A stretch of 52,527 bases of DNA from Dehalococcoidia bacterium (GTDB lineage: Bacteria > Chloroflexota > Dehalococcoidia > GIF9 > AB-539-J10). Location: contig DATKVL010000107.1 of NCBI GenBank assembly GCA_035530115.1, positions 1 to 52,527 on the forward strand. The letters run 5' to 3'. The translations under genes were made by a program, and so were the position numbers. Within the stretch, counting starts at the first letter, position 1, and every line of letters starts with the position of its first letter. A model generated the notes under the pieces. That model did not search any database and was not told where the DNA came from. It saw only the letters and a list, made by a program, of their open reading frames with translations. This document shows, one piece after another, positions 9,117 through 47,537 of this stretch.

Positions 9117-9638
9117 ATGACCGACTCTGACCAAAAAGAGACACGGATAACTGCGAAGAAACGAGTCCGAATAGAGAAAGAGTTCGAGGCCATGGGCAGA
9201 GGCATCTGGACCTACGCCGACATAGCGGCAGAGATCGGCGTATCAGAGGTCACTGTCAGGAGAGACATGAAGCACCCCTACGCCTTCAAGTACGTCGAGA
9301 AACTTCAAGAGAGAAGAGGATCTCTCGTAGACCAACTCATAAAAAGACAGATTAATCAAATAGAGAGCGGGGGCGTAACCCCCCACCTCCAGTTGCTCTA
9401 TAGAGGGAAGATGATCGATGGTCTTCTACCCAAGAACGTCATCCAGAAAGTTAGTGGGGAACTTCAACAAAAGATAGAGGTGGAGGGGGTTGAACTCAAA
9501 GGACTTGACGAAGACGCAGTCGGAGCAATCGTTCAGAACTTCATGGACGACGAGGCGAGAAGACTACGTCAACCAGAGCCAGATGCTATACCGGGCGCTA
9601 AAGAACGCCCTGAAGATGGAGTGGATCCCACGGGATAA
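9117..9638 (+). CDS. terS: Terminase small subunit (HTH)
   Basis: Position immediately upstream of and overlapping TerL; YADIAAEIGVSEVTVRRDMK helix-turn-helix. Confidence 0.6.
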   Translation: MTDSDQKETRITAKKRVRIEKEFEAMGRGIWTYADIAAEIGVSEVTVRRDMKHPYAFKYVEKLQERRGSLVDQLIKRQINQIESGGVTPHLQLLYRGKMIDGLLPKNVIQKVSGELQQKIEVEGVELKGLDEDAVGAIVQNFMDDEARRLRQPEPDAIPGAKERPEDGVDPTG

Positions 9639-13339: not shown

Positions 13340-13660
13340 GTGAAGATGATGAAGGCTAAAGGAAGATATACTCCTTGGGTTGGAAGCAACATCTTTATTT
13401 CGAAAGAGGAACTTGAAAAATCCGCAAGAACATTGATAGGTAAACCCGTGAAAGCCAACTTTAAAGAAATAGTTGGAATCATAATTGATGCGGAATATAG
13501 GGATGGAGGCATAGACTACGAAATGGAACTTAATGATCCACGCACAGAATACATGTATCGAGAACGACTTGAAGATAATATCTTTGAAGTTGTTTTTACA
13601 GGCCTCAGTCTTAATGAAGATAAGAGTTTATCCGAAACTAAGATAGGTGAAGATAAGTGA
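13340..13660 (+). CDS. Hypothetical protein; short AT-rich paralog of the N-terminal domain of the 15479..17470 protein
   Basis: SKEELEKSARTLIGKPVKANF versus SDLEEIERSARTLTWRPLNLNHD in the 15479 ORF. Confidence 0.5.
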   Translation: MKMMKAKGRYTPWVGSNIFISKEELEKSARTLIGKPVKANFKEIVGIIIDAEYRDGGIDYEMELNDPRTEYMYRERLEDNIFEVVFTGLSLNEDKSLSETKIGEDK

Positions 13661-14037
13661 CTCGTGAAAAGGATACACGGGAAGCCCCTACGACACCAAC
13701 AGCCGAAAATAAACCATCACCACTAGGATCTGACACTTCATACCCATCTATAATAGAGGCTATAGACATCTACATAGCCCTAGAACACGATAAGAACCAA
13801 ATGATAAAGGATGTATTTCCTAGAGCCCGCACCATACAACCAGAATGGAGTGGGGGAAGCTTCTATGATGCATTAAAAATACTTGGAGAAACGGCACCCT
13901 ACGATCTTGCGATGAAAAGCCAAGACGCACTTCTTCAAACAGTGATTGGAATAGAAAGATACTATGATATAGAAGGCCATGATAACACCGTTGACATTTT
14001 GAATCTAACTAAGCGAATATTACTTTATCATAGTTAA
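13657..14037 (+). CDS. Hypothetical protein
   Basis: ORF track 126 aa (GTG start, overlap with previous stop). Confidence 0.5.
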   Translation: MTREKDTREAPTTPTAENKPSPLGSDTSYPSIIEAIDIYIALEHDKNQMIKDVFPRARTIQPEWSGGSFYDALKILGETAPYDLAMKSQDALLQTVIGIERYYDIEGHDNTVDILNLTKRILLYHS

Positions 14038-23193: not shown

Positions 23194-24031
23194 CGCCGCC
23201 CTCATCGCCTGGTGTGAGGCGGAGACTATAGACCTCTGCCTTAAATCCCTCAAAGGCCACGCCGACGAGGTCGTGATCTCCGACACAGGTAGCTTCGACG
23301 GAACCGTCGGCAAGGCTCGGGAGTGGCTTGACAGACTAGACTTGCCGGGCGAGGTTTTCAGCGTCACGATTCGAGGGCTCGGTCAGGCCCGCCGGGCAGC
23401 GATAGAGAAATGCACGCATCCGTGGATACAACTGGTAGACGCGAACATCGTCCTCACTGAGGCATTGAAGAAAGAGCTAAGACAGTCTGCTGAGGGAGGG
23501 CGTCCCGGTATGGTTCGCAGCTTAAACCTGATGGGCGACTATGAGCATTACTTCACATCCCTCCCGTTCCATGCTCATCATAACGTATTATTCCCCCGTG
23601 ACGCAATTCGGTGGCGAGATGACTTCGACTACCCTCTTCCAGTCTCGGGGCGAATCCTGCTGAATAATTGGGCAGTGAGCCTCAGCCGGGTAAGGCCGGC
23701 GTGGCGCTACTGGCTCCGAGGTGAGCCCTTCAAACCGGAGACGGGTCGCGAGTGGCGGACGCCGGAGAACCGGCAACTGCAATGGCAATTCTCGGGCGGC
23801 CATCACCCCTCACTCCTGGAGTACGTAGAGGCCGAGGAGGGACTGACCCTTGAGGACGTGAAGCGCATCGCCCCCACCTGGTTCCTAGACCTGTTGCAAC
23901 GCTATGCAGCACCATTAAAGGAGAGTCACCGGCAAGGGCTTCCCGAGGTTATTAGGGAAGAACAGAGAAACCCACGGTACAAGTTGGTCTATGAGGGAGG
24001 TGAAATCGTTGGGCGATGGCCCGAACTCTAA
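23183..24031 (+). CDS. Glycosyltransferase family 2-like
   Basis: EVVISDTGSFDGT resembles the DTGSTDxT motif; GTG start overlaps previous gene. Confidence 0.6.
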   Translation: MKISAALIAWCEAETIDLCLKSLKGHADEVVISDTGSFDGTVGKAREWLDRLDLPGEVFSVTIRGLGQARRAAIEKCTHPWIQLVDANIVLTEALKKELRQSAEGGRPGMVRSLNLMGDYEHYFTSLPFHAHHNVLFPRDAIRWRDDFDYPLPVSGRILLNNWAVSLSRVRPAWRYWLRGEPFKPETGREWRTPENRQLQWQFSGGHHPSLLEYVEAEEGLTLEDVKRIAPTWFLDLLQRYAAPLKESHRQGLPEVIREEQRNPRYKLVYEGGEIVGRWPEL

Positions 24032-24770
24032 TGTAGCTGAATCATCAGGAATCCAATCGTCTAAACCCAAAGTCTCGTTAATAGTGACGAGTCATAACCA
24101 GATTATGTATAGCCAGATGATGTATTCTTCTCTGAAAAAGTACACTCGATACCCCTATGAACTTGTCTGGGTTGATTGTATAAGCACCGATGGAACGAGG
24201 GAGTGGCTTAATTCGGAGCTACACAAGGAAACCGTGAAAGTCTTCGTGCCAAAAATTGGGATAGGCGAGGCGATGAACATCGGCTTCAGTAAATGTAGCA
24301 AAGAAAGCGAATACATTGGTGACTTGGACAATGATTTGATTCTAACAGAAGGTTGGCTTACGAGATTGATCCAGCATATGGAGATGGACAAGAAAATAGC
24401 AGTGTGCCAGGCACTATGGAGTCTCCGTGGAAAAGATCCGGAGAAAATACATGAATTTGCACGGACTATAAAGAATAATAACGGCTTGAAGAAAATGTGG
24501 TGGGTTAATGGGAGCCACACCCTCTTCAGAAGAAGTGCTCTTGAACAAGTTGGACTTTGGAACCCTATTTACTGGATGGGTGAAGATAAGGATATTGGGA
24601 TACGGTTATCAAACGCTGGCTTTAAGAATGTAATTGCTTTGAATACATGTGTTTATCACTTTCAGGGGAGAACTACTAGCGTGATAGAAAAAACTGATCC
24701 AGAATGGAACAAACACAGGATAGAGTCAAAACGTTTATTAGATAAACTGTATGGTTCACGTAAACGGTAG
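23991..24770 (+). CDS. Glycosyltransferase family 2
   Basis: VSLIVTSHNQ, LVWVDCISTDGT, DLDNDLIL (DxD); alternative starts GTG 24000 or TTG 24009; composition turns AT-rich here. Confidence 0.75.
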   Translation: MREVKSLGDGPNSNVAESSGIQSSKPKVSLIVTSHNQIMYSQMMYSSLKKYTRYPYELVWVDCISTDGTREWLNSELHKETVKVFVPKIGIGEAMNIGFSKCSKESEYIGDLDNDLILTEGWLTRLIQHMEMDKKIAVCQALWSLRGKDPEKIHEFARTIKNNNGLKKMWWVNGSHTLFRRSALEQVGLWNPIYWMGEDKDIGIRLSNAGFKNVIALNTCVYHFQGRTTSVIEKTDPEWNKHRIESKRLLDKLYGSRKR

Positions 24771-24787
24771 GCTGGAAAATCGCTGGA

Positions 24788-25882
24788 TTGAATGTAGACT
24801 TGCTAACATATGAAAACGTTCTATCTAGATCCAAGATGAAAAGTGACATAAATAAACACCTGACTCGCCTCTATAAGCTAACTGCCAATATCCCTTTTAA
24901 AGAAAAGGTTGTAGTAGAACTTGGGGTGAGAAGTGGAGAGTCTACAACAGCATTGTTAGCTGCTGTAAACGATACAGGTGGGCGATTAATCAGTGTGGAT
25001 ATAGCAGAATGCAACAAGACTAGAAGACGATTGAAAGGAGAACCCAATTGGTCTTTTATCCATGGAAACGATATAGAGATCATCAAAGAATGGGACAAGC
25101 CAATAGACCACCTATTCATTGATACGAGCCATACCTTTAAACACACTCTTGCAGAACTCCGTGAATGGGGGGACTGGGTTAAAGAAAATGGAATAATGTC
25201 CCTTCACGACACAACTGCACAGAACTATCCTGATCTTATGAAAGCAATAGAAAAATATCTTGAAGAGAATCCAACATTTTTATTTACTAATTATCCCGAG
25301 TGTTTCGGTCTTGGTGTTATACAAAAACAGTCTAATGCTTTACCCAAGGAGTATTGGGAAGCTTGTAGATGGTATTTGAATGATGCTTACGACTTAGATA
25401 TAGATGATAAAACATCTTTTTATCCACAGAGATATTACGAAATTGCTGACGTATTAAAATCATTGGAGCCAAACCCCCAAAAAATATTGGAGGTTGGTTG
25501 CTTAACTGGTTACGGCATCAACATTTTGGAAAGTAGAGGCTTTGAGATCTATGGAATAGAAATTTATGGAAGGGCAATAAGAAAAAGGGTGTCTGATCAC
25601 ATCATTAAGGCTTCAACGGAGACCTTGCCCTTCAGGAACAAAAGTTTTGATGCCGTGATTAGTCTTGGAGTCCTGGAGCATATACACAGATCCGGCTTGG
25701 ATAGGGTCCTCCTTGAAATGGACAGGGTCGGTAAAGCAAACATCCATAGAATACACATGAAAGGTTTTGGTCGGTTTTGGAATCGTTCTTGGCACATAAC
25801 GGTCGAAAACATAGGTTTCTGGAAAACCTTGCTTGAAAAACTTGGGATTGGGGAGCATTGGCACTTGTATCATGAACCTTAA
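24788..25882 (+). CDS. Tandem double SAM-dependent methyltransferase
   Basis: Domain 1: VVVELGVRSGESTTAL...FIDTSHT (Methyltransf_24/O-MTase-like). Domain 2: ILEVGCLTGYGINIL...FDAVISLGVLEHI (Methyltransf_11-like). Confidence 0.75.
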   Translation: MNVDLLTYENVLSRSKMKSDINKHLTRLYKLTANIPFKEKVVVELGVRSGESTTALLAAVNDTGGRLISVDIAECNKTRRRLKGEPNWSFIHGNDIEIIKEWDKPIDHLFIDTSHTFKHTLAELREWGDWVKENGIMSLHDTTAQNYPDLMKAIEKYLEENPTFLFTNYPECFGLGVIQKQSNALPKEYWEACRWYLNDAYDLDIDDKTSFYPQRYYEIADVLKSLEPNPQKILEVGCLTGYGINILESRGFEIYGIEIYGRAIRKRVSDHIIKASTETLPFRNKSFDAVISLGVLEHIHRSGLDRVLLEMDRVGKANIHRIHMKGFGRFWNRSWHITVENIGFWKTLLEKLGIGEHWHLYHEP

Positions 25883-29113: not shown

Positions 29114-29875
29114 ATGTATAAACAAGGGTTTAAACACTCTGAAGAAACCAAGAGAAAAATGTCCGAGAGTCACCTGAAAAACCCTACACGTTATTGGCTG
29201 GATAAGAAACTATCCGAAGAACATAAAATAAAAATAAGTAATGCCCATAAAGGAAAAACACTATCTAAAGAACACAAACAAAAAATTAGCAGGGTTTTAA
29301 AAGGTATTATTACATGGAATAAAGGGCAAAAAGGAATATACTCAGAGGATCATAGAAGAAAAATAAGTACATCCTCGAAGGGAAACAAACATAATAAGGA
29401 CCGCAAGGCTTCTGAAGATACAAAACGAAGAATGTCGGATGCTCAAAAGAAAATAACTCATTCGGGTAGATTTAAAAAGGGAAACATGCACCGCTATTAT
29501 GAAAAAACATTTTCAGAAGAACATAAAAATAAAATTCGAGAAGCTAGACTAAAACAGGTTTTTCCCCAAAAGGATACTTCTATTGAAGTCGCTATGCAAA
29601 ACGAATTAACCCAACGAGGAATTATTTACGAGAAGCATCTTCCGGTTTGCGGGGTGTGCCAGCCTGACATAGTTTTTCCAGAGAGAAAGATCATTATTCA
29701 ATGCGATGGTGATTACTGGCATAACTTGCCTGAGATGGTCGAGAAGGATAGAAGGCAGGACAAGGCTCTTAGAGCGAATGGGTGGCAGGTTCTTCGTTTC
29801 TGGGAGCACGAAATTAAAGATAATGTTCAAAGATGTGTAGATGAAATAACGTTCCAGGTAAACCATATTAGTTAA
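29114..29875 (+). CDS. Homing endonuclease: six NUMOD3-like repeats plus a Vsr/DUF559-type PD-(D/E)xK nuclease domain
   Basis: Repeats such as GFKHSEETKRKMSESH, KLSEEHKIKISNAHKG and TLSKEHKQKISRVLKG; C-terminal QPDIVFPERKIIIQCDGDYWH...ANGWQVLRFWEHEI. Confidence 0.8.
   Translation: MYKQGFKHSEETKRKMSESHLKNPTRYWLDKKLSEEHKIKISNAHKGKTLSKEHKQKISRVLKGIITWNKGQKGIYSEDHRRKISTSSKGNKHNKDRKASEDTKRRMSDAQKKITHSGRFKKGNMHRYYEKTFSEEHKNKIREARLKQVFPQKDTSIEVAMQNELTQRGIIYEKHLPVCGVCQPDIVFPERKIIIQCDGDYWHNLPEMVEKDRRQDKALRANGWQVLRFWEHEIKDNVQRCVDEITFQVNHIS
29843..29875 (+). repeat. Direct repeat copy 2 (gaaataacgttccaggtaaaccatattagttaa)
   Basis: See 29064..29096; five of the six differences are silent wobble changes and one gives V->I. 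Confidence 0.85.
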
Positions 29876-29891
29876 GTTTGGAGTTGAGACT

Positions 29892-30173
29892 ATGGAGAAA
29901 GTAAGAATCGGAGAAGGTATCCGAAGATACACGTTTGACGAGTTGAAGGAGGAGATGACTGAGGAGGACGCCCTGTTCGCAGGGACCGCCGCCTTCGTCA
30001 TATCTATGAACTGGATCGACTACCAGCGGCTTAAGAAGCATCTGAGCATGATCCCGGAGTTCAGGGTAGTGTACAAGACCTTTTCGACCACCCATCTTCG
30101 AATCGTCAAAGTAGAGCAGTACGACGAATATCTTTTATGGCGGAAAAATAAGGAGAATAAAGATGGAATATAA
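29892..30173 (+). CDS. Hypothetical structural-module protein
   Basis: ORF track 93 aa; GC-rich except the last ~40 nt, which are AT-rich like the downstream HNH gene. Confidence 0.5.
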   Translation: MEKVRIGEGIRRYTFDELKEEMTEEDALFAGTAAFVISMNWIDYQRLKKHLSMIPEFRVVYKTFSTTHLRIVKVEQYDEYLLWRKNKENKDGI

Positions 30174-30861
30174 TAGCGAGTTCATTCAAAAACTAATTGA
30201 AAGACCGATGTTCAGTGTACTAGAAGAGGCTTATAATATACGGGATAGACAGAGTGCAGTTTGTCGTTATTGGGCATACACAGAATCAGAAAAGACGCAT
30301 CGACAAAAGCTACAAAAACAATATTATTTAGAAAATAGAAACAAAATATTAAAACAAAAGAAAGAATACTGCCAGAAAAACAAGGTCAAAAGACTAAGCA
30401 AGGCAAAGGAATATTATTTAGAGAATAGAGATAAAATAAAGAATTATCAAAAACAACACCGCGAAGAAAACGAACCTAGACTTCTTCAAGAGTCAAGAGA
30501 TCGTTATCAGAAAAATAGAGATAGAAATTTACTTTACGCAAAGAAGCGACACCAAATGAATAAAGAAACGGATAATAAAAAATCAAGGAATCGTCGCAAA
30601 GAGATGCGTTTAGAGATCTTAAAAATTCTAGGCGGCGAATGTCAAAGATGTGGTATTACCGATCATCGAGTTTTACAAATAGATCACGTATGTGGTGGTG
30701 GAAAAAAGGAACTCAAAAAAGGTGGAAATTACCACGTAATGAAAAACATTATTAAAAACCCAGAATGCAAACATAAATACCAGTTATTATGTGCAAACTG
30801 CAACTGGATAAAAAGGCATGAAAATAAAGAGTATCAAAAAGGACGAATTAGAGATAACTAG
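30163..30861 (+). CDS. HNH homing endonuclease
   Basis: CQRCGITDHRVLQIDHV...YQLLCANCNWIKRHEN (HNH motif); N-terminal YYLENRxKI repeats; AT-rich island. Confidence 0.85.
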   Translation: MEYNSEFIQKLIERPMFSVLEEAYNIRDRQSAVCRYWAYTESEKTHRQKLQKQYYLENRNKILKQKKEYCQKNKVKRLSKAKEYYLENRDKIKNYQKQHREENEPRLLQESRDRYQKNRDRNLLYAKKRHQMNKETDNKKSRNRRKEMRLEILKILGGECQRCGITDHRVLQIDHVCGGGKKELKKGGNYHVMKNIIKNPECKHKYQLLCANCNWIKRHENKEYQKGRIRDN

Positions 30862-31600: not shown

Positions 31601-32017
31601 ATGAGTCTCAGATTTTCTATAAAATGGGATAACCTCGACAACTACAGTAGATACCTAGCTTCAGATATGCCTCAGGCATTCGAGGAATCCGTCGTGGAGG
31701 CTCTGGATAAGGGTGCTGACGCCGCACGGGATCGGGCTAAGGAACTTGTCGCTGTTGACACGGGGTCACTACAGAAGAGCATCCGTAAAGAACGCCACGC
31801 GTGGCCCGCAGGTAACATCACTTACGTGGGGATCAGGGCAGGCGGCTATGTGGTGAACCCGAAGACTAAGCGGCTCGTCGACTATGCGATTTATGTTGAG
31901 TATGGCACAAGCAGGCAAAGGCCACAGCCATACATGAGGCCGGCGATCATATGGGCATCCAAGCAGATCGAGGGAAACTTCTGGAAGGCGTTAAGCAGGC
32001 GAGTAAAAGTTGAGTGA
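31601..32017 (+). CDS. HK97 gp10-family neck/tail-completion protein
   Basis: VAVDTGSLQKSIRKE...DYAIYVEYGTSRQRPQPYMRPAI matches the TIGR01725-type pattern (vDTG-L-x-S...YA-x-x-vEyGT...P-pfm-pA). Confidence 0.75.
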   Translation: MSLRFSIKWDNLDNYSRYLASDMPQAFEESVVEALDKGADAARDRAKELVAVDTGSLQKSIRKERHAWPAGNITYVGIRAGGYVVNPKTKRLVDYAIYVEYGTSRQRPQPYMRPAIIWASKQIEGNFWKALSRRVKVE

Positions 32018-34373
32018 AGGACCGATAATCACTGGCCGTTTGCGGCTTAAGGATGAGACAGGTAAGACACTGGACTCGCTTAGAGGTAAAATAGGGTCAG
32101 TCTTCGGCATCATAGCGAAGAGCGTCATGGTCGCCGGCGCCGCCGCCGTGACGGGGATGGGGTTATCCATCAAAGCGGCTGCCGACTTCGAGGAAGCCCT
32201 CACCAGAATCATAGCGGCGTCAGGTAAGACCGGTGAGGAGGCGAAGAACCTTGAAACCGCTTTATCTGACGCAGCCAAGGCGGCGGGCCCCGAGTTCGGG
32301 ATAAGCGCGACGAACGCCGTAGTCGCCCTAGAGGCCCTCGTGAAGGCGGGTCTTGAGGGAGAGGAGGCCATAACAGCGCTTCAGGGGGCGCTGCAGCTCG
32401 CGGCTCTCGAAGGAATGGGTACTGCTGAAGCCTCCAACATGCTCGTATCGGCGATGACGATGTTCGGCCTCGAAGCTGAGGACGCAACCCACATAATCGA
32501 CATGTTCTCGGCTGCCGCTGACGCAGGCATAGACGCCGCAGGGGGCTATGCGGCGGGCCTCTCAAACGTAGGGGCCACGGCTAACGCCATGGGACTCAGC
32601 ATGGAGGAGACGATGGCTGCCCTTGTGCAACTTGACAAAACGTTCGGCGGTGCCCAGGAGTCCGGGACATTCCTCAACCGCATGCTTCTTGACATGACTT
32701 CGAAGGCGGACAAGGCAGGACTCGAACTCTATAATGTGGACGGCTCGATGAGGAGTCTGGACGACATCATGGGGCAGGTTCGTGAGGTCTTACAGGGATT
32801 CGGAGATGACCAGAAGGCAGTCAACGAGTGGCTGGGGCAGTTCGACATGCGAGCCCAGAAAGCCATCCTCGGTCTCGCTGGCTATGATGAAAGCATCTAC
32901 GAGACTCAGAGAGACCTTGAGCAGATGCGGTCGGCGCAGGATAAAGTCAACTTGGTTCTCGACACGTTTGCGGGGCGTATGAAGATAGCGGGGTCTCGCA
33001 TCCAGGTGATGGCTGTGAGTCTAGGGGAGCGGCTGATGCCTTACGCCCTCGGCGTGTTAACCGTATTTGAGGACTGGATGCCAGTGATCAGCGACCTTAT
33101 CGACGACTTCGCCACCTTCGCAACTAAGATTTTTGATGTGGCGGGCGCCCTCGCGGAGGGCGACTGGGACGCAGCGTTCAGAATCATAGAGGAAATCTAC
33201 AGCGGCATATCAAGCAAATTCGTGGAGTGGTTTAACGAGATCGATTGGGATGGGGTGTGGGCTAAAGCCAGGGCGTTCCTCGGAACCCTCTACGAGAGAT
33301 TCATGGGTTGGGCTGGGGACATAGCGTCCTTCTTCATCGCTTGGTGGGGCAAGATTGACTGGATCGCCGTATGGAGTGGACTTCAAACCTTCACTGAGGG
33401 TCTATTCGATACGATCAAAGGGTGGGCCGGCGACATCGCCACGTTCTTCGTTGACTGGTGGGACGCCACAGACTGGGACGAGGTGTGGGGCGGCCTGAAA
33501 AGATACGTCACTTATCTATGGGATAAAGTCGCGGGATGGGCCGGGGACATAAGCACCGCCTTCCTCAACTGGTTCGGAACCGTTAACTGGTCAACCGTCT
33601 TCGGCGGACTAAGCGACTGGATGGACGCTTTCTGGGGTTGGCTCTTCGGCAAGGCGGTGCCGGACATAGAAACGGCTTTCACTGAATGGGTGGGCACGGT
33701 CGACTGGTCCGCCGTCTTCAAGAGCCTGGGATCGTTTGCCGTTAACCTTCCCTTATGGATATTTGAGCAGATCAGTAAAGCCCCTCAAAACATCGGGTAC
33801 TATATAGGCGAGCATATTAGAGAAACAGATTGGCGTGAGGTCTTCAGTGCCATCGGGGACGGGATCGTTGACACTCTTAAGGGCGCCGCGGACACGTTCC
33901 TTGACTGGATGCCAGACTGGCTTAAGGAACTGCTCGGCCTCAAGAAAATAGAGGTTCCTGCACAGCCTAAACCGCCTGCGCCAACACCCCCCGCGCCGAC
34001 ACCGCCAAGAGATGGAGACAGAGATGGGGCGCCAACGCCTCCTGCACCAGCACCGCCCGTACCAACGCCCCCAGCGCCGACGCCACCCACACCATACATT
34101 CCGGAGGGTCCGTGGGGCGGCGCCGAGAGGTTCGCAGTCCAACACGGATTCGAGGGTATGGTGACGAAGCCGACTCATTTCCTCGCCGGCGAAGCTGGGT
34201 CCGAGTACGTGAGCGTCACGCCCCGGGGTGCCCTGGCGGAGCGAGGGAGTGGCGACATCAACATCAATGTGACTGTGGGGTCTATGGAGTCATCGGAGGA
34301 TGCGAGGCGTTACGCCGTCGAGTTCGCTGATGAGGCCGTGAGGGAGCTTAGAAAGAGGGGGGTTACCATGTGA
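32010..34373 (+). CDS. Tail tape measure protein (TP901-family core)
   Basis: 787 aa; FEEALTRIIAASGKTGEE...ATNAVVALEALVKAGL...ASNMLVSAMTMFGL core; W-rich 38-aa tandem repeats; C-terminal FLAGEAGSEYVSVTP motif. Confidence 0.85.
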   Translation: MSEGPIITGRLRLKDETGKTLDSLRGKIGSVFGIIAKSVMVAGAAAVTGMGLSIKAAADFEEALTRIIAASGKTGEEAKNLETALSDAAKAAGPEFGISATNAVVALEALVKAGLEGEEAITALQGALQLAALEGMGTAEASNMLVSAMTMFGLEAEDATHIIDMFSAAADAGIDAAGGYAAGLSNVGATANAMGLSMEETMAALVQLDKTFGGAQESGTFLNRMLLDMTSKADKAGLELYNVDGSMRSLDDIMGQVREVLQGFGDDQKAVNEWLGQFDMRAQKAILGLAGYDESIYETQRDLEQMRSAQDKVNLVLDTFAGRMKIAGSRIQVMAVSLGERLMPYALGVLTVFEDWMPVISDLIDDFATFATKIFDVAGALAEGDWDAAFRIIEEIYSGISSKFVEWFNEIDWDGVWAKARAFLGTLYERFMGWAGDIASFFIAWWGKIDWIAVWSGLQTFTEGLFDTIKGWAGDIATFFVDWWDATDWDEVWGGLKRYVTYLWDKVAGWAGDISTAFLNWFGTVNWSTVFGGLSDWMDAFWGWLFGKAVPDIETAFTEWVGTVDWSAVFKSLGSFAVNLPLWIFEQISKAPQNIGYYIGEHIRETDWREVFSAIGDGIVDTLKGAADTFLDWMPDWLKELLGLKKIEVPAQPKPPAPTPPAPTPPRDGDRDGAPTPPAPAPPVPTPPAPTPPTPYIPEGPWGGAERFAVQHGFEGMVTKPTHFLAGEAGSEYVSVTPRGALAERGSGDININVTVGSMESSEDARRYAVEFADEAVRELRKRGVTM
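33228..33737 (+). repeat. About 4.5 in-frame tandem repeats of 114-117 nt (38-39 aa, W-x-x-x-I/V-D/N-W...GWAGDI...) inside the tape measure gene
   Basis: Unit starts at 33228, 33342, 33456, 33570 and 33687, each beginning TGG; WFNEIDWDGVW / WWGKIDWIAVW / WWDATDWDEVW / WFGTVNWSTVF / WVGTVDWSAVF. Confidence 0.85.
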
Positions 34374-36847
34374 TCGGGAAGATCAAGATCGAAGGCGTCG
34401 AGAAGCCGCACATGGGCCAGTTGAATGTTGAATGGGACGTCAGTACCCTCGACAGCTTTAGGGCTACGCTCCGCGTGGCCGAGGACTTGGCCGGATACGC
34501 TGAGGCCACGATCGAGCGAGACAACATCGAAATATTCGGCGGGCGGATTCAGACCCCGAAAATACGCTTCGGCGCCGAGGGGACGGGTATGACCGTGGAG
34601 GGCTACGACTACACGATTATGCTCCAGGACTACCTGACGCCCGCTCAGAGCATCGTAGACAAGACGACGGCGGCCGCCCTCGCCCTCATATTAACTAACT
34701 GGCCGCACGCCATAGCCCCAATAGATGGGGCTTTCGCCTACATATCGCAGCTAGAGGAATGGGAGACGAGCCTAGAGTTCCTCAGGGACATCGAGCTTTA
34801 CACCGACACCTGCATCGAGTTTGCCATTACCGACCCCGAGATAAACAACGAGTTTCGCACGGGAACCATCCAGTCATACAGTGCAGGGGGGCTGCATAAC
34901 TGCTTCTTCTACGACGGGACGACGCAGCGGTTCTACATATTCTACCGGGAAGGCGGCGACATCTGCTACGACCGCAGCGTCGATGGCGTAACATGGACAC
35001 GGGTGGTCACCCCATACGCCTGCCCGTCCAACCACTTCAGCGTGGCCTGGCATGACAACAAAGTTTACCTCTTCTTTGAGGGTGCTGCGAACGTCACTGA
35101 CCTCTACAGGGGCACGATAAACGACCCGGATGGTGTGATTAACTTCGTTTGGAGAGATGGAGACATATTTGCGAACCCGAATGCGATGAGGTTCGGCCCC
35201 GTCTGGGGCAACGAAGGACATATCTGGGTGGTCGAGGAAGTTGCGAATGGTCGGGCGTGGGAGTCTGAAGACGACGGGGCGAGTTGGAACGCCAGATTCG
35301 TGGGTCCGGCAGACCACAACCTTTGGGGAGTAGTCCCTAGAAGGATTCTGTATGGTGCCGGCGACATGATCGGCTTCGTATTGAATGATGTTGTCGATGA
35401 TTTGGAGGAGTGGCTGTATGATAAGTCGGTGCCCTCATTCACACGCACCAGAAAGATTTGTGATACCACCGGCGACATAGACGCGCTGCAGGCCACGGTA
35501 AGCCACCACTATTACAACCCTTGGGTCTGCTTTCGCGACGGAACCACGATCTATGTTTACAGCCTTTTTGGAGCAGTATGGAGCAGTCGGTACTCTGGCA
35601 CAGTTGGAGATTATGATGGTAGCTTCAGCTTCTGCTGCGACGCAGGTGAAGCGGCTTACCTGATCTATAACCAACCAGCCGGGTCCTTTGTCATTAAGTT
35701 GGGAGGGGCGGGTGATGTTACTTGGCCAGTAACATCCACTTATATGTGGTATCCCTCCGGCACAATTTTTGGAGGATCTAACCCCTTCGCGGAGGAAGGA
35801 GACTTAGGGGTTTTCTTCTGTGCATTAGACTCAGACGCTGACGGTTGGTTCATACTCTTCCCGCCGACGGGGATAAGGCTCCACGAGTTCTCCAATTCCG
35901 GGTCGTTCCGAGCGGACGCCGTTACCACTAGCGGGGTTCAATGGGGGCTACTTACCTCTGAAAACATTGAGGTCCTCGACGACTGGAGCATCCTCGATAA
36001 TGCTAACGTGTTGCTCCTCGACGGCATCGAGACGACCTACGACCTGCACTACGACGGCAGCTTGGACCCGGCTGAGAACGTTGTCAAGGTCAAATGTGAT
36101 TTGTACCGTCTTGTTGCCCAACAGCCATACGTTTCGGCCTTCGCTATTTCGGAGCGCCTTGACGAGGTTACTATGGACACGGACTATGAGGACTGCTTCA
36201 TAGGCGTCTCAAGGCTCGCCGATCTCGCTGGTGCCGAGTTCTGGGTGGAGAAGGCCGGTGGCGTCTACACGCTTTACTTCTCAACTCGGCGGGGTAGTGA
36301 CAAGTCCAACCTTGTGGTGCTGAAAAGTGCCAAGACGGCGGACTACCCCACTGTTGAGCCGAATATAAAGTTTCTGGAGAATACCTTTGACTGGGACCGA
36401 TACGCGAACTGCATAAAGGTGATCGGCGGAACCGTGGACGGAGTCCGAGTCGAGGGAACGGTGAAGGATCCCACGGAGATCGCCGCCTTCGGCCAGGAAG
36501 TCTGGAAGACGCTTCGGGACGCCGACATACTTACGGTGAGCATGGCGGTACAGCGGGGTTACATTGAGCTTCAGAGACGGAATGCTGTGTCGCTTCGCAT
36601 CACGGGGCGTTTCCTCGACGAGTATGATCCGAAGGATATAGAGATCGGTGACAGCGTGACCCTTGTGGCCGAGTGGGATGATGGCGCCCTGAAGATCTCT
36701 GGCTCTCACAGGATCATCCAGCTTTCAAGGGATTACGGCGCGGACGGTGAACAGGTAAGCGCCTCGTTTAGCAACCAGATGAAGGCGGCTGAGTATTGGG
36801 CTTATATGAGCAAGACGGCCACTCTTGAGCGGTGGTTCACAGCGTAG
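34370..36847 (+). CDS. Large distal tail/baseplate protein with an internal Asp-box (BNR) beta-propeller-like insertion
   Basis: 825 aa directly after the TMP; Asp-boxes SVDGVTW (34976..34996) and SEDDGASW (35264..35287); N- and C-terminal parts resemble siphovirus distal tail proteins (positional inference). Confidence 0.6.
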   Translation: MIGKIKIEGVEKPHMGQLNVEWDVSTLDSFRATLRVAEDLAGYAEATIERDNIEIFGGRIQTPKIRFGAEGTGMTVEGYDYTIMLQDYLTPAQSIVDKTTAAALALILTNWPHAIAPIDGAFAYISQLEEWETSLEFLRDIELYTDTCIEFAITDPEINNEFRTGTIQSYSAGGLHNCFFYDGTTQRFYIFYREGGDICYDRSVDGVTWTRVVTPYACPSNHFSVAWHDNKVYLFFEGAANVTDLYRGTINDPDGVINFVWRDGDIFANPNAMRFGPVWGNEGHIWVVEEVANGRAWESEDDGASWNARFVGPADHNLWGVVPRRILYGAGDMIGFVLNDVVDDLEEWLYDKSVPSFTRTRKICDTTGDIDALQATVSHHYYNPWVCFRDGTTIYVYSLFGAVWSSRYSGTVGDYDGSFSFCCDAGEAAYLIYNQPAGSFVIKLGGAGDVTWPVTSTYMWYPSGTIFGGSNPFAEEGDLGVFFCALDSDADGWFILFPPTGIRLHEFSNSGSFRADAVTTSGVQWGLLTSENIEVLDDWSILDNANVLLLDGIETTYDLHYDGSLDPAENVVKVKCDLYRLVAQQPYVSAFAISERLDEVTMDTDYEDCFIGVSRLADLAGAEFWVEKAGGVYTLYFSTRRGSDKSNLVVLKSAKTADYPTVEPNIKFLENTFDWDRYANCIKVIGGTVDGVRVEGTVKDPTEIAAFGQEVWKTLRDADILTVSMAVQRGYIELQRRNAVSLRITGRFLDEYDPKDIEIGDSVTLVAEWDDGALKISGSHRIIQLSRDYGADGEQVSASFSNQMKAAEYWAYMSKTATLERWFTA

Positions 36848-36864: not shown

Positions 36865-37287
36865 GTGACACAGATCGGCGTAGCTGTAGTGGATATTCCG
36901 GAGGAGTATCGTTACAGTCAGTACGGGGTGGTCCTGGGGGGCGCCGTGGACCGGGACGAGGATCTGCATAGCATGAGGGAGCTCTTCGCCCTATGCCGGA
37001 CGGGCACGGCAATACATAACATTCCGGGGCGGCGTCCCATTGGAGAGGATATGGACGAGGAGCTGCGCAACACGCAGTACGTGCAGTTCAGCCATGGCGA
37101 CCGCCCGATAACAGGCTGGTATCTGCTCAGGAGCTTCAGCCTCTTCCAGGACGAGACACCCATGGGTGCCGACCGCGCCACCTATGCCTTCACCGTGGAC
37201 CTATTCTTCCTCGGAACCGTCGCCTATTACGTAGCGGGCTTTGCGTTGAAGGACCTCGAAGCAGCAGTCTCGGATTGGGGGATATAG
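36865..37287 (+). CDS. Hypothetical tail component
   Basis: ORF track 140 aa (GTG after aggtga). Confidence 0.5.
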   Translation: MTQIGVAVVDIPEEYRYSQYGVVLGGAVDRDEDLHSMRELFALCRTGTAIHNIPGRRPIGEDMDEELRNTQYVQFSHGDRPITGWYLLRSFSLFQDETPMGADRATYAFTVDLFFLGTVAYYVAGFALKDLEAAVSDWGI

Positions 37288-37351: not shown

Positions 37352-40039
37352 ATGCCGATGGCGGAAATAGGTTTACCTGTCTCAAGTCAGAACCTGAAAA
37401 TAACTCATAACGGCGTCGACTATAACCTCGTCGAATCCGTTTTCACGGCTCCGGCGGTGGCGAGCACTCGTATAGAAGCCAGGTCGAGCAATGCCGTTGA
37501 CAACACGCAGAACCTTGTGGTATATGGCATAGTAGCCGGAGCCCCAGTCTCAGAGAGCTTCGCGCTTAACGGCACCACATGGGTGAATGGAGCCCTGGAC
37601 TTCACCGAGGTCTTCGAGGCCTACCTAGACGCTGTCTGTGCGGGCACCGTCTCGATCAGGGATAGCACCGCCGTCGTCCTCGGAACGATAGCCATCGGCC
37701 GTCGGGTGCTCAGCCCCGACGTATTCAAGCGTGTCGGCAAGGACGGCAACGAGGTTATCCTGCCGCTCTGCGGGGGCTGCGAGTTCGTCGGCGAGGTCCT
37801 TGAGGGCCAATTTAAGAAGGACTGGGACGCCGACATAGTCACCTTCACGGCACGGATCAATGGCGTGGTCACGGGCATGCTGGAGATGGGCGGCGAATCT
37901 GACTCCGATGGCACCTTGAGATATGGCTGGATCAACAACCATCACCCCTTTGTTCTGATGAACAAGGCGGAGCTAACGGTTGAGCTGGAGATCCCGACGG
38001 CGGACACCACTACGCCAACTTATGACATATACTTCGAGTTCTACATACGAGACCAGAAGGAGTTAACCACACCGTCAAATGATCCAAACTTCATCATGGT
38101 ACGACACTTCGTAGACCAGAACGGCCTAATTCTGCAGCTATACAAGGAGGTGGGCGGCGTCAACACGCTTCTGTGGGACGGTTCCACCGCAGACGGCGAC
38201 AGCATCTTCAGCACCACCGCCGACCAGTTCTGGATATTCCGATTCGTCTTCCACGACGGCCACGCCGGCGAGGCGGCCCCGGCGGATGACAGGCACATGC
38301 ACGTCTACGCTAAGCACGGCGCCAGCCGGGCGACCGCTGAGGCGGCGACGGAGGAGGAACTCTATGACACCGTTGGCACCCAGGCGAGCCCCTACGACAT
38401 AAGCGATCTGCTCTTCAAGGTGGGCTACCCGGCGTATCAGATCATAACTGCAAACGAGATATGGTTCGGCGATTCGGTGGGCTCCGGCCTTGAGGCGATA
38501 AGCACTTACCTGCGCACCAGTTACCCCGCCCTCTTCGCGTTGAAGTACGACTTCACGGACGCGGACTATGGGGATGGGGATGTGTGTCTCTACGATGGAG
38601 ATCCGGCGTTAGCGACTTCACAGCGTGTTTACGATGAAGATCACGAATTCGCGTCTGATGCTTACTTACAAAACGGTTTGTTGAGGCTTCACGTAGATGC
38701 GGGTGTTGATGGACTGAAACTATATTATTGGACGGGGGCAGTATGGGCTCAACCAGTTAAAACCATAAATATGGCTCTCGAAACGGACGTCATCTCTTTA
38801 AGGTATGTTCATCTACTTGGGGTGAATCAGGTTTCCCCCGAAAAAACAAGTATACGGCTAAAGTTCACGGAGACAGCGGTTAACAATAATAATTTTTATA
38901 TAATTATGACCATATCGCTTCAGAGGGGAAAATGGTCTTTAGAATGTATCATCACCAACATTCAACCAGAACAACCCACCCAAATTGGAAACTTATCGAA
39001 CATTCCTAAAATGAGGTGGGGATATGTTGGAGATGGTAAAATTGGTGACGAGGATGTATCTGTATCTGGAACAAATACCACGTTCACAGACAACTTTTTA
39101 TTAATATTTGATGATGGTGACGCCGTTGTTTTCACGGTATCTATGAACAAAAAACCAAATAGTGCCCCCTTAAGATTTATTACTTCTACTGGTGGTCTGC
39201 TTGTGGCGGATGCCTTCAGCCCCGCAACAGCATTAGAAAACACATTCTGGTTATCATTAACTCCGTTCCCTCTTGTCGCTAATCTCTTCAAGGAAGCTGA
39301 GGACGCTACGCTGGGCGCTGGGGCGGCGAGGCTGTTCGGGGAGCCGGCGGTTGGGTCAGCGAACTTGCAGGCGTTCAGCGCGGGGGCGGATGTGGGCAAC
39401 GTGTTGACGATCATCGGCGACGTGGGCGGCGTCAGGACGACGGACACGATCACGCTGAACGGCGTCGCCGTGGTTCCCGGCACGGAGGACTTCGACCGCG
39501 TCTACATATTGAAACTAGCCCCGGCGGCGGGTAACAACGTGACGGTGCAGGACAGCCTCGGCAACCCCATACACATCATACCCGCAGGGACGACCCTCGT
39601 GAGTAATTGCGTGATACTGGACGCTATAACCGAGTACGTCCGATACAACTTCACTGCTGGCACCGACCTGCCCGCTGGAAGGTACTTCGCCTTCTTCCGT
39701 GTGGCGGATCAGTTCCAGGTGGCGGACGACATAGCGTTGAGGGTCACCAACGCTACGGATGGTGAGCAGCGGGGCGAGCAGAACAGCGAGTTCACCGTCA
39801 CTGCGCCTGCGGCGTCTGCGTATGGGTACTATGGGGAGGTCTTCGACATACTTGAGGAGGACGTGGCGGGGCTGAATACCATAGGTATGGTGGTGACGAA
39901 AGACACGGGCGGCGGCAACGAAATCTACGTCGACTACTTCCTCTGTATTCCCATCGGAGACGGACGCGATTGGCCGGGTGACCTTGCCCACGCAGCCCTG
40001 CGCACCTTCACGAAGCCGAGGCGCCTCTACGTCCGCTGA
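37352..40039 (+). CDS. Tail fibre / receptor-binding protein (putative), compositionally mosaic
   Basis: 895 aa, last gene of the tail module; duplicated ~65-aa domain near both ends; AT-rich internal segment ~38590..39285. Confidence 0.55.
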   Translation: MPMAEIGLPVSSQNLKITHNGVDYNLVESVFTAPAVASTRIEARSSNAVDNTQNLVVYGIVAGAPVSESFALNGTTWVNGALDFTEVFEAYLDAVCAGTVSIRDSTAVVLGTIAIGRRVLSPDVFKRVGKDGNEVILPLCGGCEFVGEVLEGQFKKDWDADIVTFTARINGVVTGMLEMGGESDSDGTLRYGWINNHHPFVLMNKAELTVELEIPTADTTTPTYDIYFEFYIRDQKELTTPSNDPNFIMVRHFVDQNGLILQLYKEVGGVNTLLWDGSTADGDSIFSTTADQFWIFRFVFHDGHAGEAAPADDRHMHVYAKHGASRATAEAATEEELYDTVGTQASPYDISDLLFKVGYPAYQIITANEIWFGDSVGSGLEAISTYLRTSYPALFALKYDFTDADYGDGDVCLYDGDPALATSQRVYDEDHEFASDAYLQNGLLRLHVDAGVDGLKLYYWTGAVWAQPVKTINMALETDVISLRYVHLLGVNQVSPEKTSIRLKFTETAVNNNNFYIIMTISLQRGKWSLECIITNIQPEQPTQIGNLSNIPKMRWGYVGDGKIGDEDVSVSGTNTTFTDNFLLIFDDGDAVVFTVSMNKKPNSAPLRFITSTGGLLVADAFSPATALENTFWLSLTPFPLVANLFKEAEDATLGAGAARLFGEPAVGSANLQAFSAGADVGNVLTIIGDVGGVRTTDTITLNGVAVVPGTEDFDRVYILKLAPAAGNNVTVQDSLGNPIHIIPAGTTLVSNCVILDAITEYVRYNFTAGTDLPAGRYFAFFRVADQFQVADDIALRVTNATDGEQRGEQNSEFTVTAPAASAYGYYGEVFDILEEDVAGLNTIGMVVTKDTGGGNEIYVDYFLCIPIGDGRDWPGDLAHAALRTFTKPRRLYVR

Positions 40040-43885: not shown

Positions 43886-44193
43886 TGAGAGTAAAGAGCG
43901 TGTCAGACCTCGCCTTTAAAGCACTTGATTTTCTCACCGAGGATGAAGATGAACTCTGGGTGGCCCACATCGTATTCGACGGCCAGGCCAAGGAGACAGG
44001 CAAAATCCAAAAAATTATGAAACAAGACTGCGGGAACTCATACGACTCCGTCCAGCGAACACTGAAACGGCTTGTTGAGAAAGGAATCATCATCCGGGTA
44101 CTTCAAGGCAAATATGAGCCAAACCTGGGGATGCTACTTCCCAAGATGATTGATCTCCTTGAAGCAGAGCAAGAGGCTGAGGGCGTTGAGTGA
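43885..44193 (+). CDS. Winged-helix DNA-binding protein
   Basis: GKIQKIMKQDCGNSYDSVQRTLKRLVEKGIIIRVLQGKY. Confidence 0.55.
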   Translation: MRVKSVSDLAFKALDFLTEDEDELWVAHIVFDGQAKETGKIQKIMKQDCGNSYDSVQRTLKRLVEKGIIIRVLQGKYEPNLGMLLPKMIDLLEAEQEAEGVE

Positions 44194-44658: not shown

Positions 44659-45282
44659 TTGAATGATCAGGTCCAGTTACAGGACACGCGTAGCCTGACG
44701 GAAAACCTCACTGAAATACTTCTTTCTCTTTCTAGACTAGAAAAAGAAAGTAGTAGTAATAGTAGTAATGTATTCGGCGAGGACGTGAATCGAGCGAAGT
44801 GCCTCATGGCTGCGTATCTCTTACCTGGGGGCGGATGCCTGCAATACATTCTTGAGCGGAAGGCATTCACGATCCCCATAGTGGCCTCCTCCACAGGGGT
44901 TGAAATCAACCTCATCTACAGTGTCGTGGGGAGACTTGTCAGAGGCGGCGTGGCTTATGAACGTTACAGGGTTGGGGGCCAAGGTAGACCTGCCAATCTG
45001 TATGCATTGTACGATGCCTCTGATAGTCAGGTGGTGGAGGCGGCCAACCTCTACAGGGACGCAAACACTGAACACGTTAAGCGTCTTGACGACTATCTGG
45101 TAGATCATGACTACAAAGAGGTAGCGGAGGAAGCTGTGAAGTACCTCAATGAGGAGGGGCAATTAGGTTCGTGGACTCTGGTTAACCTGTTAGCGGTTAA
45201 GCGGATATACGACGATGACGCGTTGCTTGAGGTGCGGCGCATCGTGGCTTCTATGGGATACACCATTGTGGAGGGAGCCTGA
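44659..45282 (+). CDS. Winged-helix protein upstream of MCM (possible origin-binding or regulatory protein)
   Basis: ORF track 207 aa; IYSVVGRLVRGGVAYERYRVGGQGRPANLYAL looks like a wHTH wing. Confidence 0.55.
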   Translation: MNDQVQLQDTRSLTENLTEILLSLSRLEKESSSNSSNVFGEDVNRAKCLMAAYLLPGGGCLQYILERKAFTIPIVASSTGVEINLIYSVVGRLVRGGVAYERYRVGGQGRPANLYALYDASDSQVVEAANLYRDANTEHVKRLDDYLVDHDYKEVAEEAVKYLNEEGQLGSWTLVNLLAVKRIYDDDALLEVRRIVASMGYTIVEGA

Positions 45283-47537
45283 TGGACGCCCTGGACTTGG
45301 ACATGGAACCACTCCGCGAATACCTAACAGGCTGCGGGGCTGTGCCCCCGTTGGATGCAGCCACCATGCGGCTCGACGGGAGCCTAGTGATCAACCTCAC
45401 GGACCTCTACCAGTATAGCACCGAACTCGTGGAGCGCCTAGTCAGTGACACAGATAAAACTCTGTTGGATGTCTCATACCACGTTAAGGAGTTGCTGACG
45501 ATGCGTGTCCCCGAGTTGATCAGGGACCACCCGGTGGAGGTTCATCTAGTCGGGCATCCCGACCAGGAGACTCCCCTTCGGAGTCTACGCAGCCACATGA
45601 TAGGCAGCCTTGCGTCAACGTCCGGCATTGTTGTCAAGATCACGCAAACGGAGCCGAAGATCAGGGAAGCCTATTATATCTGTCAGAAGTGTGGGCAGGG
45701 CATTAGAGTCCCCCAGAAGATGCAGTACAGAAGCGAGCCGTTAGATAGGTGCGATAACTGTAAGGGGAAAAACTGGGTACTCGATCCATCACACAGCGTA
45801 TTCGAGGACATTCAGTTGCTGAAGCTGCAGGAGGCGCCTGAAAGCCTTCCCTCGGGGCAGATGCCTCGCACATTCACCTACGAACTCAGGGGATTGCTCT
45901 GTGGACGTGTCAACGCGGGTGACCGGATTAGGATCACTGCGGTTATCGACGCGGCTATGGCGGGAAAGAGCAGCCCTGAACGCAGACTAGAGATGTATGG
46001 GCGCTGCTTTGGCTTCGGGTATCTAGCCGAAGATGCGGAAGACCTGGAGTGCAGCACCGAGGACGCGCAGAGTTTCAGTGATATGGCTAAGAGGCAGGAT
46101 ATGTTCGCCGCCGTCACCGATAGCGTCGCCCCCAGCATCTACGGGCTCAGGGAGGAAAAGCAGTGCGTCGCCGCCTACCTGATGGGTGGGGAAGCCAAGG
46201 AGATGGAGGATGTCCGCATAAGAGGCGACATAAGCGTCCTACTCATCGGTGACCCTGGTTTGGCGAAGAGTCAACTACTTAAGTTCGCCTCTAAAGCCAG
46301 CCCACGGGGACTCTACACCACAGGCAGGGGCAGCAGTGCCGCAGGTCTCACGGCGGCGGTGGTCAAGGATAAGGACATCGGATACAGCCTTGAGGCGGGC
46401 GCCCTAGTTCTGGCTGACAGGGGGCATGTATCCATCGATGAGATCGAGAAAATGGAAGAGAACGACAGACGCGCCATACACCCCGCCATGGAACAACAAA
46501 TAGTGCCGATCAACAAGGGCGGCATCAACACGACTCTTAACGCACGATGTGGGATATTGGGGGCTGGGAACCCTAAGGATGGGAGGTATAACCCATACCT
46601 TACCGTGGTTCAGAATATCAATCTCGAAGAGACCATACTGAACAGGTTTGACTTAATACGAGTGATGAAGGATCAGCCAAACGAGGAGCGAGACGCAGCT
46701 CTAGCAGATCACCTGCTGAGAGTGCATCGCGGTGAGCAAGTTCAGTCACCTCTCACTCTCAGAGAACTCCGAAAATACGTGGCATATTGCAGAAAACACA
46801 TACACCCTGAGGTACCCCCGACAGTGGGTCAGCAACTTAAGGAATATTACTTAGGTCTCCGACGCACCAAGGAAGGCGACATAGGGGATCCCAAGCAACC
46901 TACCATCATGATCACTCCCCGACAATTCGAATCATGCATACGGGTCACCGAAGCCGTGGCCCGATCCAGGCTCCACGAGGTAGCCACAGAGGACGACGCC
47001 CTCACCGCTCTGGGAATCATCGAGGCAAGCATGGAGCAAGTAGGCGTAGACCCCACCACAGGGGAACGCAACATAGACAGCTGGATGACGGGGAAGCCTA
47101 AAGGGTTACATCAGAAGCTGGAGTTGCTTCGTAACATCATATATGAGATGCAGTGCGAAGCCACTGACGGGCATTGTGACTACCAGACGATGCTGCAGCG
47201 GGTGACCGAGAAGGGGCTCTTCAAGGTATCCGAGCTAAGGAAATTCGTTGAGCAGCTGCTCCTCGAGGATGCGTCAGAGCCTGTGACGGGGAAACTACGG
47301 ATACTTAAGCCGATGGGGTACACGGGGAAGGCGCGGAGCCTCAAGGGTCAGCTACAGAAGACGCTGCAACTGATAGGGGAGATGAGCACTATAGAAAGCG
47401 GTGTCAAGGACGACGACCTGTATGAGGCGTTGCAGGGTCAGGGCGTGACGCGGTCAGAGGCCGCCAAACTAGTAAGCGTACTCATGAAGGATGGCACCAT
47501 ATTCAGCCCCCGCCCAGGCATATATCGCCGCACATAA
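45282..47537 (+). CDS. mcm: MCM replicative helicase
   Basis: Zn motif CQKCG...CDNCKG; Walker A LLIGDPGLAKSQLL; Walker B HVSIDEIEKM; sensor/arginine finger CGILGAGNP...NRFDLI; C-terminal wH region. Confidence 0.95.
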   Translation: MDALDLDMEPLREYLTGCGAVPPLDAATMRLDGSLVINLTDLYQYSTELVERLVSDTDKTLLDVSYHVKELLTMRVPELIRDHPVEVHLVGHPDQETPLRSLRSHMIGSLASTSGIVVKITQTEPKIREAYYICQKCGQGIRVPQKMQYRSEPLDRCDNCKGKNWVLDPSHSVFEDIQLLKLQEAPESLPSGQMPRTFTYELRGLLCGRVNAGDRIRITAVIDAAMAGKSSPERRLEMYGRCFGFGYLAEDAEDLECSTEDAQSFSDMAKRQDMFAAVTDSVAPSIYGLREEKQCVAAYLMGGEAKEMEDVRIRGDISVLLIGDPGLAKSQLLKFASKASPRGLYTTGRGSSAAGLTAAVVKDKDIGYSLEAGALVLADRGHVSIDEIEKMEENDRRAIHPAMEQQIVPINKGGINTTLNARCGILGAGNPKDGRYNPYLTVVQNINLEETILNRFDLIRVMKDQPNEERDAALADHLLRVHRGEQVQSPLTLRELRKYVAYCRKHIHPEVPPTVGQQLKEYYLGLRRTKEGDIGDPKQPTIMITPRQFESCIRVTEAVARSRLHEVATEDDALTALGIIEASMEQVGVDPTTGERNIDSWMTGKPKGLHQKLELLRNIIYEMQCEATDGHCDYQTMLQRVTEKGLFKVSELRKFVEQLLLEDASEPVTGKLRILKPMGYTGKARSLKGQLQKTLQLIGEMSTIESGVKDDDLYEALQGQGVTRSEAAKLVSVLMKDGTIFSPRPGIYRRT

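Follow-up and report, generated by a model that had tools for sequence, protein, structure and literature searches.

Mosaic receptor-binding proteins (RBPs) have long been established in tailed bacteriophages. VR2, a variable region of the host-specificity protein in phages of Streptococcus thermophilus (DT1, for example), the head domains exchanged among the RBPs of lactococcal phages, and the tail-fibre segments exchanged among P2, Mu, P1, lambda and the T-even phages are examples of this organization, while host recognition also varies through systems such as the retroelement of Bordetella phage BPP-1 that acts on Mtd, the G segment of Mu, and int1 of the archaeal virus phiCh1. Here, the whole 52,527-nt contig DATKVL010000107.1 of assembly GCA_035530115.1 (the window) was analysed with respect to one gene, an uninterrupted open reading frame (ORF) of 895 amino acids (aa) encoding a putative host-recognition protein of the tail tip, whose middle (M) domain is GC-poor within a GC-rich gene. 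The explanation that best accounts for the data, to which a probability of about 0.8 was assigned, is that an in-frame exchange put a very distant M allele, coming from a low-GC member of the same viral protein family, in the place of the resident one.

As in the mosaic RBPs of phages, the module of this protein (the query) would have been exchanged in frame, with crossovers in short conserved border sequences, and it is discordant in composition and phylogeny with the rest of the gene. Unlike those proteins, however, the query has no sequence relationship and no convincing whole-chain fold relationship to them, its swapped module sits in the middle of the chain and is followed by a C-terminal domain that was kept and is conserved, and the virus is of archaeal type. 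The module itself is predicted to be a beta-supersandwich, whereas theirs is usually a trimeric head or knob. The order of parts in the tail-tip protein would be a short conserved N-terminus, an optional domain, the N core, the M domain, another optional domain and a C-terminal jelly roll, and the N core is probably the part anchoring the protein to the tail.

The GC content measured in 150-nt windows was 0.54-0.71 before ~38,600, fell to 0.37-0.45 over 38,650-39,250, and rose again to 0.58-0.70 beyond 39,250. An earlier note, made from the sequence alone, had reported an abrupt switch from GC-rich to AT-rich and back near 38,590 and 39,285, and a two-breakpoint likelihood fit on the GC content of third codon positions (GC3) placed the step within ~25 nt of these positions, at codon 406 (nt 38567) and codon 644 (nt 39283); the fit improved the log-likelihood by 56.9, and its support ranges were codons 404-420 and 637-656. 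Both strings quoted in that note were recovered, at 38599 and 39293, and the absence of frame disruption that it had described agrees with the intact 895-aa ORF. The codons between the breakpoints presented a GC of 0.42 and a GC3 of 0.38. Similarly, the profile of GC and codon usage along the ORF, which had been proposed as a check, gave GC values at the first, second and third codon positions of 0.48, 0.39 and 0.38 for the segment of aa 413-645 against 0.59, 0.43 and 0.76 for the rest of the gene. As a reference, nine GC-rich backbone genes were read in 323 windows, each 233 codons long, whose GC3 averaged 0.702 (standard deviation 0.055, minimum 0.571), which placed the segment at z = -5.8. 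Since the same peptide written in backbone codon usage would have a GC of 0.546 and a GC3 of 0.716, the shift sits at synonymous sites, and amino-acid content accounts for little of it.

In the context of the whole genome, gene-level composition was bimodal, with a GC3 of 0.60-0.80 in backbone genes and of 0.28-0.50 in AT-rich islands, and the M cassette belongs to the same compositional class as these islands. This distribution shows that DNA from a low-GC pool has been taken up by the genome repeatedly. For the homing-endonuclease genes, the methyltransferase/glycosyltransferase genes and the island at 13340-14037, the GC3 was 0.28-0.46 within a backbone of 0.65-0.80. The islands are whole genes or gene insertions, unlike the M cassette, in which one domain would have been exchanged for its homologue, in frame and inside a gene.

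The comparison with the nearest relative, L001, to which the query was sister in the N tree with 96% support, revealed that the loss of similarity is concentrated in this same segment. The amino-acid identity to L001 was 75% in the first optional domain (insert 1; nonsynonymous divergence, dN, 0.213 and synonymous divergence, dS, 1.614), 78% in the N core (dN 0.145, dS 0.855), 72% in insert 2 (dN 0.197, dS 0.725) and 86% in the C domain (dN 0.101, dS 0.522), but dropped to 41% in M, with a dN of 0.612 and a saturated dS. Counting the sites of conserved residues only, unchanged four-fold sites amounted to 58% in the N core, 80% in the C domain and 30% in M, and the four-fold differences in M comprised 7 transitions and 19 transversions, a transversion-dominated spectrum with the look of ancient divergence at saturation, and unlike that of deamination. 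Alignment of the homologues, another check proposed in the earlier note, thus set a segment 41% identical to L001 against flanks 72-86% identical to it, and M was the most divergent module across the family. Moreover, the nucleotide identity to L001 fell from 0.93 over aa 400-409 to 0.53 over the next ten residues (aa 410-419), and reached at least 0.77 again by aa 660, so that identity falls stepwise at a conserved motif, with no gradient. Synonymous saturation together with a change of codon usage is what an imported tract predicts, and is not predicted by positive selection acting in place.

The family is known from metagenomes only, and was sampled as 30 homologues by an indexed search and as 107 representatives by an exhaustive phmmer search. 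All 30 homologues covered 88-100% of the segment, and all 107 representatives carried it in the same family context. Since every family member has an M domain, the cassette is an allele of a resident domain and not a foreign domain type. The in-frame swap by horizontal replacement proposed in the earlier note was favoured by composition, divergence and the family comparison, but the arrival of a foreign type of domain was not, a distant allele of the resident domain having probably taken its place. Across the family, M is bounded by two conserved motifs, DYGxGDV.L.DG...RV.DEDH on the left and PF.LVANLF.EAED on the right, and the right-junction residues P638, L645, E648 and E650 were invariant or nearly so.

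Phylogenetic comparisons within the family indicated that M alleles have moved between lineages. The N tree was resolved. The M tree was star-like, and its end branches exceeded those of the N tree ~2.5-fold (medians of 1.0 and 0.39). The relatives L005 and L023 were 73% identical in M and 40% identical in the N core, and the N data rejected this pair as a clade in the approximately unbiased (AU) test (p-AU = 2e-4). The trees of the pairs L004/L025 and L010/L011 were also incongruent. Furthermore, breakpoints recurred at aa ~400-450 and ~645-650 (the latter, at the right junction, in query/L001, L005/L023 and L001/L028): the identity profile of L005/L023 rises and falls near the same borders as that of the query, and L001 and L028 part right after aa ~645. 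On these grounds, M is a discrete exchange module with recurrent junctions.

Other parts of the protein presented a comparable behaviour. The C domain, so similar between the query and L001, was 43-48% identical to those of L002 and L007, and insert 2 was 19% identical to that of L007, which makes the C-terminal domain and insert 2 shuffled modules themselves. In addition, in five relatives (L014, L015, L034, L019 and L037) the span aligned to M (aa 405-652) measured 1.2-2.3 kb, compared with 0.74 kb in the query, owing to large insertions at the N/M junction, in the gaps between FTDA, DY, GDGDV and LYD. The N/M junction would therefore also be a hotspot for domain insertion.

Of the relatives whose N core is GC-rich, six (L003, L004, L006, L007, L008 and L010) carried a low-GC M (GC3 0.37-0.42) and five (L001, L002, L028, L005 and L023) a GC-rich one (GC3 0.57-0.75). 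The low-GC alleles were 26-45% identical among themselves and to the query, and in L006, L007 and L010 the low-GC tract runs on into the C-terminal domain. More distant family members were uniformly of 40-47% GC. The earlier note had reasoned that the same dip with a conserved sequence in relatives would point to a structural constraint; dips were indeed present, but the alleles were unrelated and five relatives were GC-rich, which argues against such a constraint. Such a distribution is consistent with a family pool, for the most part of low GC, from which M domains were imported more than once.

These observations can be assembled into a single course of events. Crossovers would have occurred in or beside the two border motifs (DYGxGDV.L.DG and PF.LVANLF.EAED), replacing a tract that may extend from ~38,567-38,580 to ~39,283-39,330, and the import would not yet have been ameliorated, given that the donor codon usage appears to be still retained. 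From this footprint, we infer the direction and the recency of the transfer, as well as recombination as its mechanism. M, the most divergent module and one exchanged between lineages, behaves as expected of the part that touches a variable structure, probably glycan in nature, on the host surface.

Several results weigh against this replacement. The segment of aa 405-650 had no match above 46-47% identity in a word-indexed search of 5.8 billion proteins, and the M domain none above 47% in an exhaustive phmmer search of 1.84 billion representative proteins; a separate search of the segment, also suggested in the earlier note, thus recovered homologues in the whole family and no donor. As neither a donor nor a close relative of the allele was found, the transfer is read from its footprint. 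The main formal weakness is that saturation of the M tree prevents the allele of the query from being placed in it: in AU tests on the M alignment, the clade of the query with L001 was not rejected (p = 0.26), and the four-member N clade was marginally rejected (p = 0.046). Because topology alone does not prove import in this virus, its case rests on composition and synonymous saturation. Moreover, the low GC of M in six other GC-rich relatives demands repeated imports from a low-GC pool, and such a recurrence could hint at a local process. With regard to the assignment of the protein, matches of the full model in BFVD to phage tail fibre or host-specificity proteins reached a template modelling (TM) score of only ~0.1, and the 895-aa protein had no Pfam family and no sequence match in PDB.

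It was also considered that M had never been replaced and had diverged rapidly in place, under diversifying selection on a host-contact surface. This would agree with the AU result that keeps the query with L001, with the location in M of both amino-acid variants found in the population, and with the fact that M is the most divergent module even in uniformly low-GC members (N 62-69% versus M 28-37%). However, selection on the protein neither saturates synonymous sites nor shifts GC3 from 0.78 to 0.38, L005 and L023 show that real exchange takes place within the family, and the identity to L001 is lost abruptly where a conserved motif lies, not gradually, which leaves in-place divergence improbable. 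A low GC selected for itself, through slow translation and folding, mRNA structure or an embedded signal towards which relatives converged, would account for the GC3 of M being almost never above that of N among relatives with a GC-rich N core, six of which dip clearly besides the query. Nevertheless, the five relatives with a GC-rich M in GC-rich genes contradict such a requirement, the dips of L006, L007 and L010 span the C-terminal domain as well and resemble longer imported tracts, and the loss of amino-acid identity is left unexplained, so that this explanation was held to be quite improbable.

Local AT-biased hypermutation of the host-recognition domain, of the deaminase type or by error-prone repair, could have produced the divergence together with the AT-richness, given that the dips recur in relatives and that GC-to-AT changes outnumbered AT-to-GC changes by 14:2 at four-fold sites relative to L001. 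Nonetheless, such a bias is equally expected for any comparison of a low-GC with a high-GC sequence, transversions dominate (19 versus 7 transitions), unlike in deamination, neither a reverse transcriptase nor a template repeat nor a paralogous cassette was found in the genome, and the strain is stable, with one single-nucleotide polymorphism over 7.5-8.7 kb across five assemblies. The deaminase-type version was rejected on the transition and transversion counts, and hypermutation as a whole is very improbable. Finally, the window is a metagenome-assembled contig, moreover one mis-binned into a bacterial genome, and a chimera of a GC-rich and an AT-rich virus from one sample might produce the same profile. 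Yet neither the frame nor the conserved motifs at the junctions are disrupted, mosaics of a comparable kind occur in independent relatives, and the gene with its flanks (7.1-8.7 kb) was reassembled in four other datasets with at most 2 base differences, by which a chimera is effectively refuted and its chance next to nil.

Those four assemblies (JGI 3300030714, JGI 3300030719, ENA ERZ27256827 and Logan SRR8554504) were produced by different pipelines and carried near-identical versions of the gene and its surroundings. The A/G polymorphism at 38885 was the only difference across 7.5-8.7 kb from three of them, and the fourth added a difference at 37222, upstream of the gene. The agreement of these four independent assemblies rules out a chimera of assembly, and the junctions are physically real. 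The cluster contained one more variant, T613P, which was likewise located within M, and the position of both population variants in this domain weakly suggests ongoing selection on it.

Programmed variation within one genome was assessed as well. The search of each domain against the window by tblastn and blastn returned self matches only, M being present once at both protein and DNA level; the scanned ORFs included no reverse transcriptase, invertase or integrase; and the repeats flanking M were of 14-19 nt, at chance level, with none of a meaningful kind. A diversity-generating retroelement region (which would bring a reverse transcriptase and a template repeat or second M copy), an invertible or site-specific switching cassette (a recombinase and flanking inverted repeats) and a silent cassette or internal donor within the window were rejected on these grounds. 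Thus, the query resembles BPP-1 Mtd and the invertible fibre segments in that the host-recognition part of a tail protein varies, but differs from Mtd, Mu G and phiCh1 in that the variation would arise by exchange between genomes and would not be programmed within one.

Structure prediction provided clues to the function of the protein. M alone, modelled with 22 homologues, yielded a beta-supersandwich with a predicted local distance difference test (pLDDT) of 88.9 and a predicted TM score (pTM) of 0.87. Its Foldseek matches were GH38 alpha-mannosidases (7UFU/7UFT), GH129 (5OPQ), GH101 EngBF (6QFO) and YidC P1 (5Y82), at E = 4e-5 to 1e-3, probability 1.0 and TM ~0.4-0.5 over ~250-290 columns. 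The fold of M is accordingly like the galactose-mutarotase-like beta-supersandwiches of GH38, GH129 and EngBF and like YidC P1, but unlike these domains M is at 10-16% identity, with a moderate TM and no catalytic domain beside it. Resembling sugar-binding domains of glycosidases, M would be a candidate for sugar binding. The variable module is thus predicted to have a ligand-binding type of fold, a beta-supersandwich of the glycosidase accessory-domain type. The full-length AlphaFold2 (AF2) model was all-beta and multi-domain (pLDDT 80.5) and matched legume-type lectins with probability 1.0; as M alone gave no lectin matches, these legume-lectin/ConA-like matches probably stem, by exclusion, from the N core. 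The PHROG matches of the 895-aa protein were of unknown function only, and the whole protein had no tblastn match in 50,697 phage records.

The 895-aa product is presumably a glycan-recognising tail-tip protein, a reading supported by its place as the last large tail gene, by the inserts and neighbouring genes of relatives and by the fold; its putative receptor-binding role is based on gene position, fold and mosaic behaviour. In place of domain 2, relatives carry Laminin_G_3, CBM_11, Endotoxin_C or Lyase_N. The positions of domain 1 were 17-20% covered in most homologues, and beta domains 1 and 2 were paralogous (30% identity over 92 aa, E = 2e-9).

Knowledge of host recognition by tailed viruses of uncultured sediment archaea is almost entirely lacking, and this gene family constitutes a defined candidate, with a hypervariable central beta-supersandwich that lineages exchange at fixed junctions; the Bathyarchaeia virus paper PMC10848311 held nothing on tail fibres or receptors. 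M offers a practical target for expression and for glycan-binding or cell-labelling assays, as well as a marker for host-range modules in metagenomes. The known rule of mosaic RBPs would be extended to a poorly known group of archaeal viruses, with a central and not a terminal module, the rule itself being unchanged. A broader reading, which we regard as tentative and rather unlikely, is that M is a standardised exchange cassette of this sediment archaeal virus family, with the invariant linkers serving as universal crossover points and the GC-rich lineage drawing on a low-GC pool. If this were true, genes would flow between viruses whose archaeal hosts differ widely in genome composition, hosts would perhaps be switched as well, and the cassette would serve as a marker from which the host specificity of unculturable viruses could be read directly in the sequence.

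Table 1. Features of the 895-aa tail-tip protein gene and of the remaining window, with positions counted from the first letter of the window
Feature	Position	Strand	Remark
Multi-domain tail-tip protein gene, 895 aa (putative host recognition)	37352..40039	+	Last large gene of the tail module
Optional beta domain 1, ~115 aa (aa 11-125)	37382..37726	+	Absent from most relatives
Conserved N-terminal core (aa 126-404)	37727..38563	+	GC3 0.78
Left junction, motif DYGDGDVCLYDG (aa 405-416)	38564..38599	+	Family-wide conserved columns
Low-GC cassette, probably the replaced M domain (codons 406-644)	38567..39283	+	Maximum-likelihood breakpoints on GC3
A/G polymorphism N512D, in M	38885	+	Poly-Asn loop; sole within-gene difference to the four other assemblies
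Right junction, motif TPFPLVANLFKEAEDA (aa 637-652)	39260..39307	+	GC3 back to backbone level
Optional beta domain 2, ~115 aa (aa 656-770)	39317..39661	+	In relatives absent or swapped for other modules
C-terminal jelly-roll-like domain and disordered conserved tail (aa 771-895)	39662..40036	+	GC3 0.78; pLDDT <50 for aa 870-895
Tape measure	32010-34373	+	PF10145, E = 1e-32
825-aa tail protein	34370-36847	+	
140-aa protein	36865-37287	+	
Large terminase	9490-10911		
Methyltransferase/glycosyltransferase genes	23991-25882		AT-rich
Homing-endonuclease genes	29114-29875 and 30163-30861		
Full-length MCM helicase	45282-47537		
HK97 gp10-like connector protein; a glycosylation island			Encoded in the 52.5-kb genome
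AT-rich islands	13340-14037; 23991-25882; 29114-30861; block from 48.5 kb, across the end of the window, to 8 kb		GC3 0.28-0.50

The window probably represents the full genome of a tailed virus that has not been cultured and that carries archaeal-type genes, and its major genes all lie on the same strand (Table 1). Contig k141_1278220 of ENA ERZ27256827 (L039) is likewise of 52,527 bp, with its start offset by ~11.1 kb, and the same size with a shifted start is as expected of a genome that is complete and either circular or circularly permuted. Among the 50,697 phage records, the MCM helicase matched archaeal viruses only, and the top match of the large terminase (TerL) was Methanobacterium phage psiM2, at 40.8%; the genome was therefore treated as that of an archaeal tailed virus. 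A host assignment taken from the binning was rejected, because the metagenome-assembled genome (MAG) in question (G000, 85% complete and 7% contaminated, with the viral contig as its C107) is bacterial, as seen from two bacterial rRNA operons and ribosomal protein S6, without S28e, on its contigs C106, C289 and C259, while the MCM and TerL matches of the virus are archaeal-viral. The viral contig was probably mis-binned, driven by its averaged 51% GC. No provirus copy was detected in a scan of 185,579 species genomes, and none of the 60 kin of the MAG had a match.

The order of tape measure, 825-aa, 140-aa and 895-aa genes was also found in relatives, and a weak match to phrog_1887 'tail protein' occurred among the upstream genes of the tail module. 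The neighbouring genes of relatives include those of a beta-helix protein and a Laminin_G_3 protein. The 825-aa tail protein had no Pfam or PDB sequence match, but it contains two Asp-box (BNR-type) motifs, SVDGVTW and SEDDGASW, which suggest a sialidase-like beta-propeller insert.

Outside the tail module, a 286-nt stretch at 43886-44168 was 75.5% identical to positions 16095-16377 of contig C476 of the bin. This stretch had no Rfam match and sits within the gene of a 102-aa winged-helix regulator (Penicillinase_R-like, E = 4e-5), and the similarity could reflect kinship between mobile elements or a repressor gene common to both contigs.

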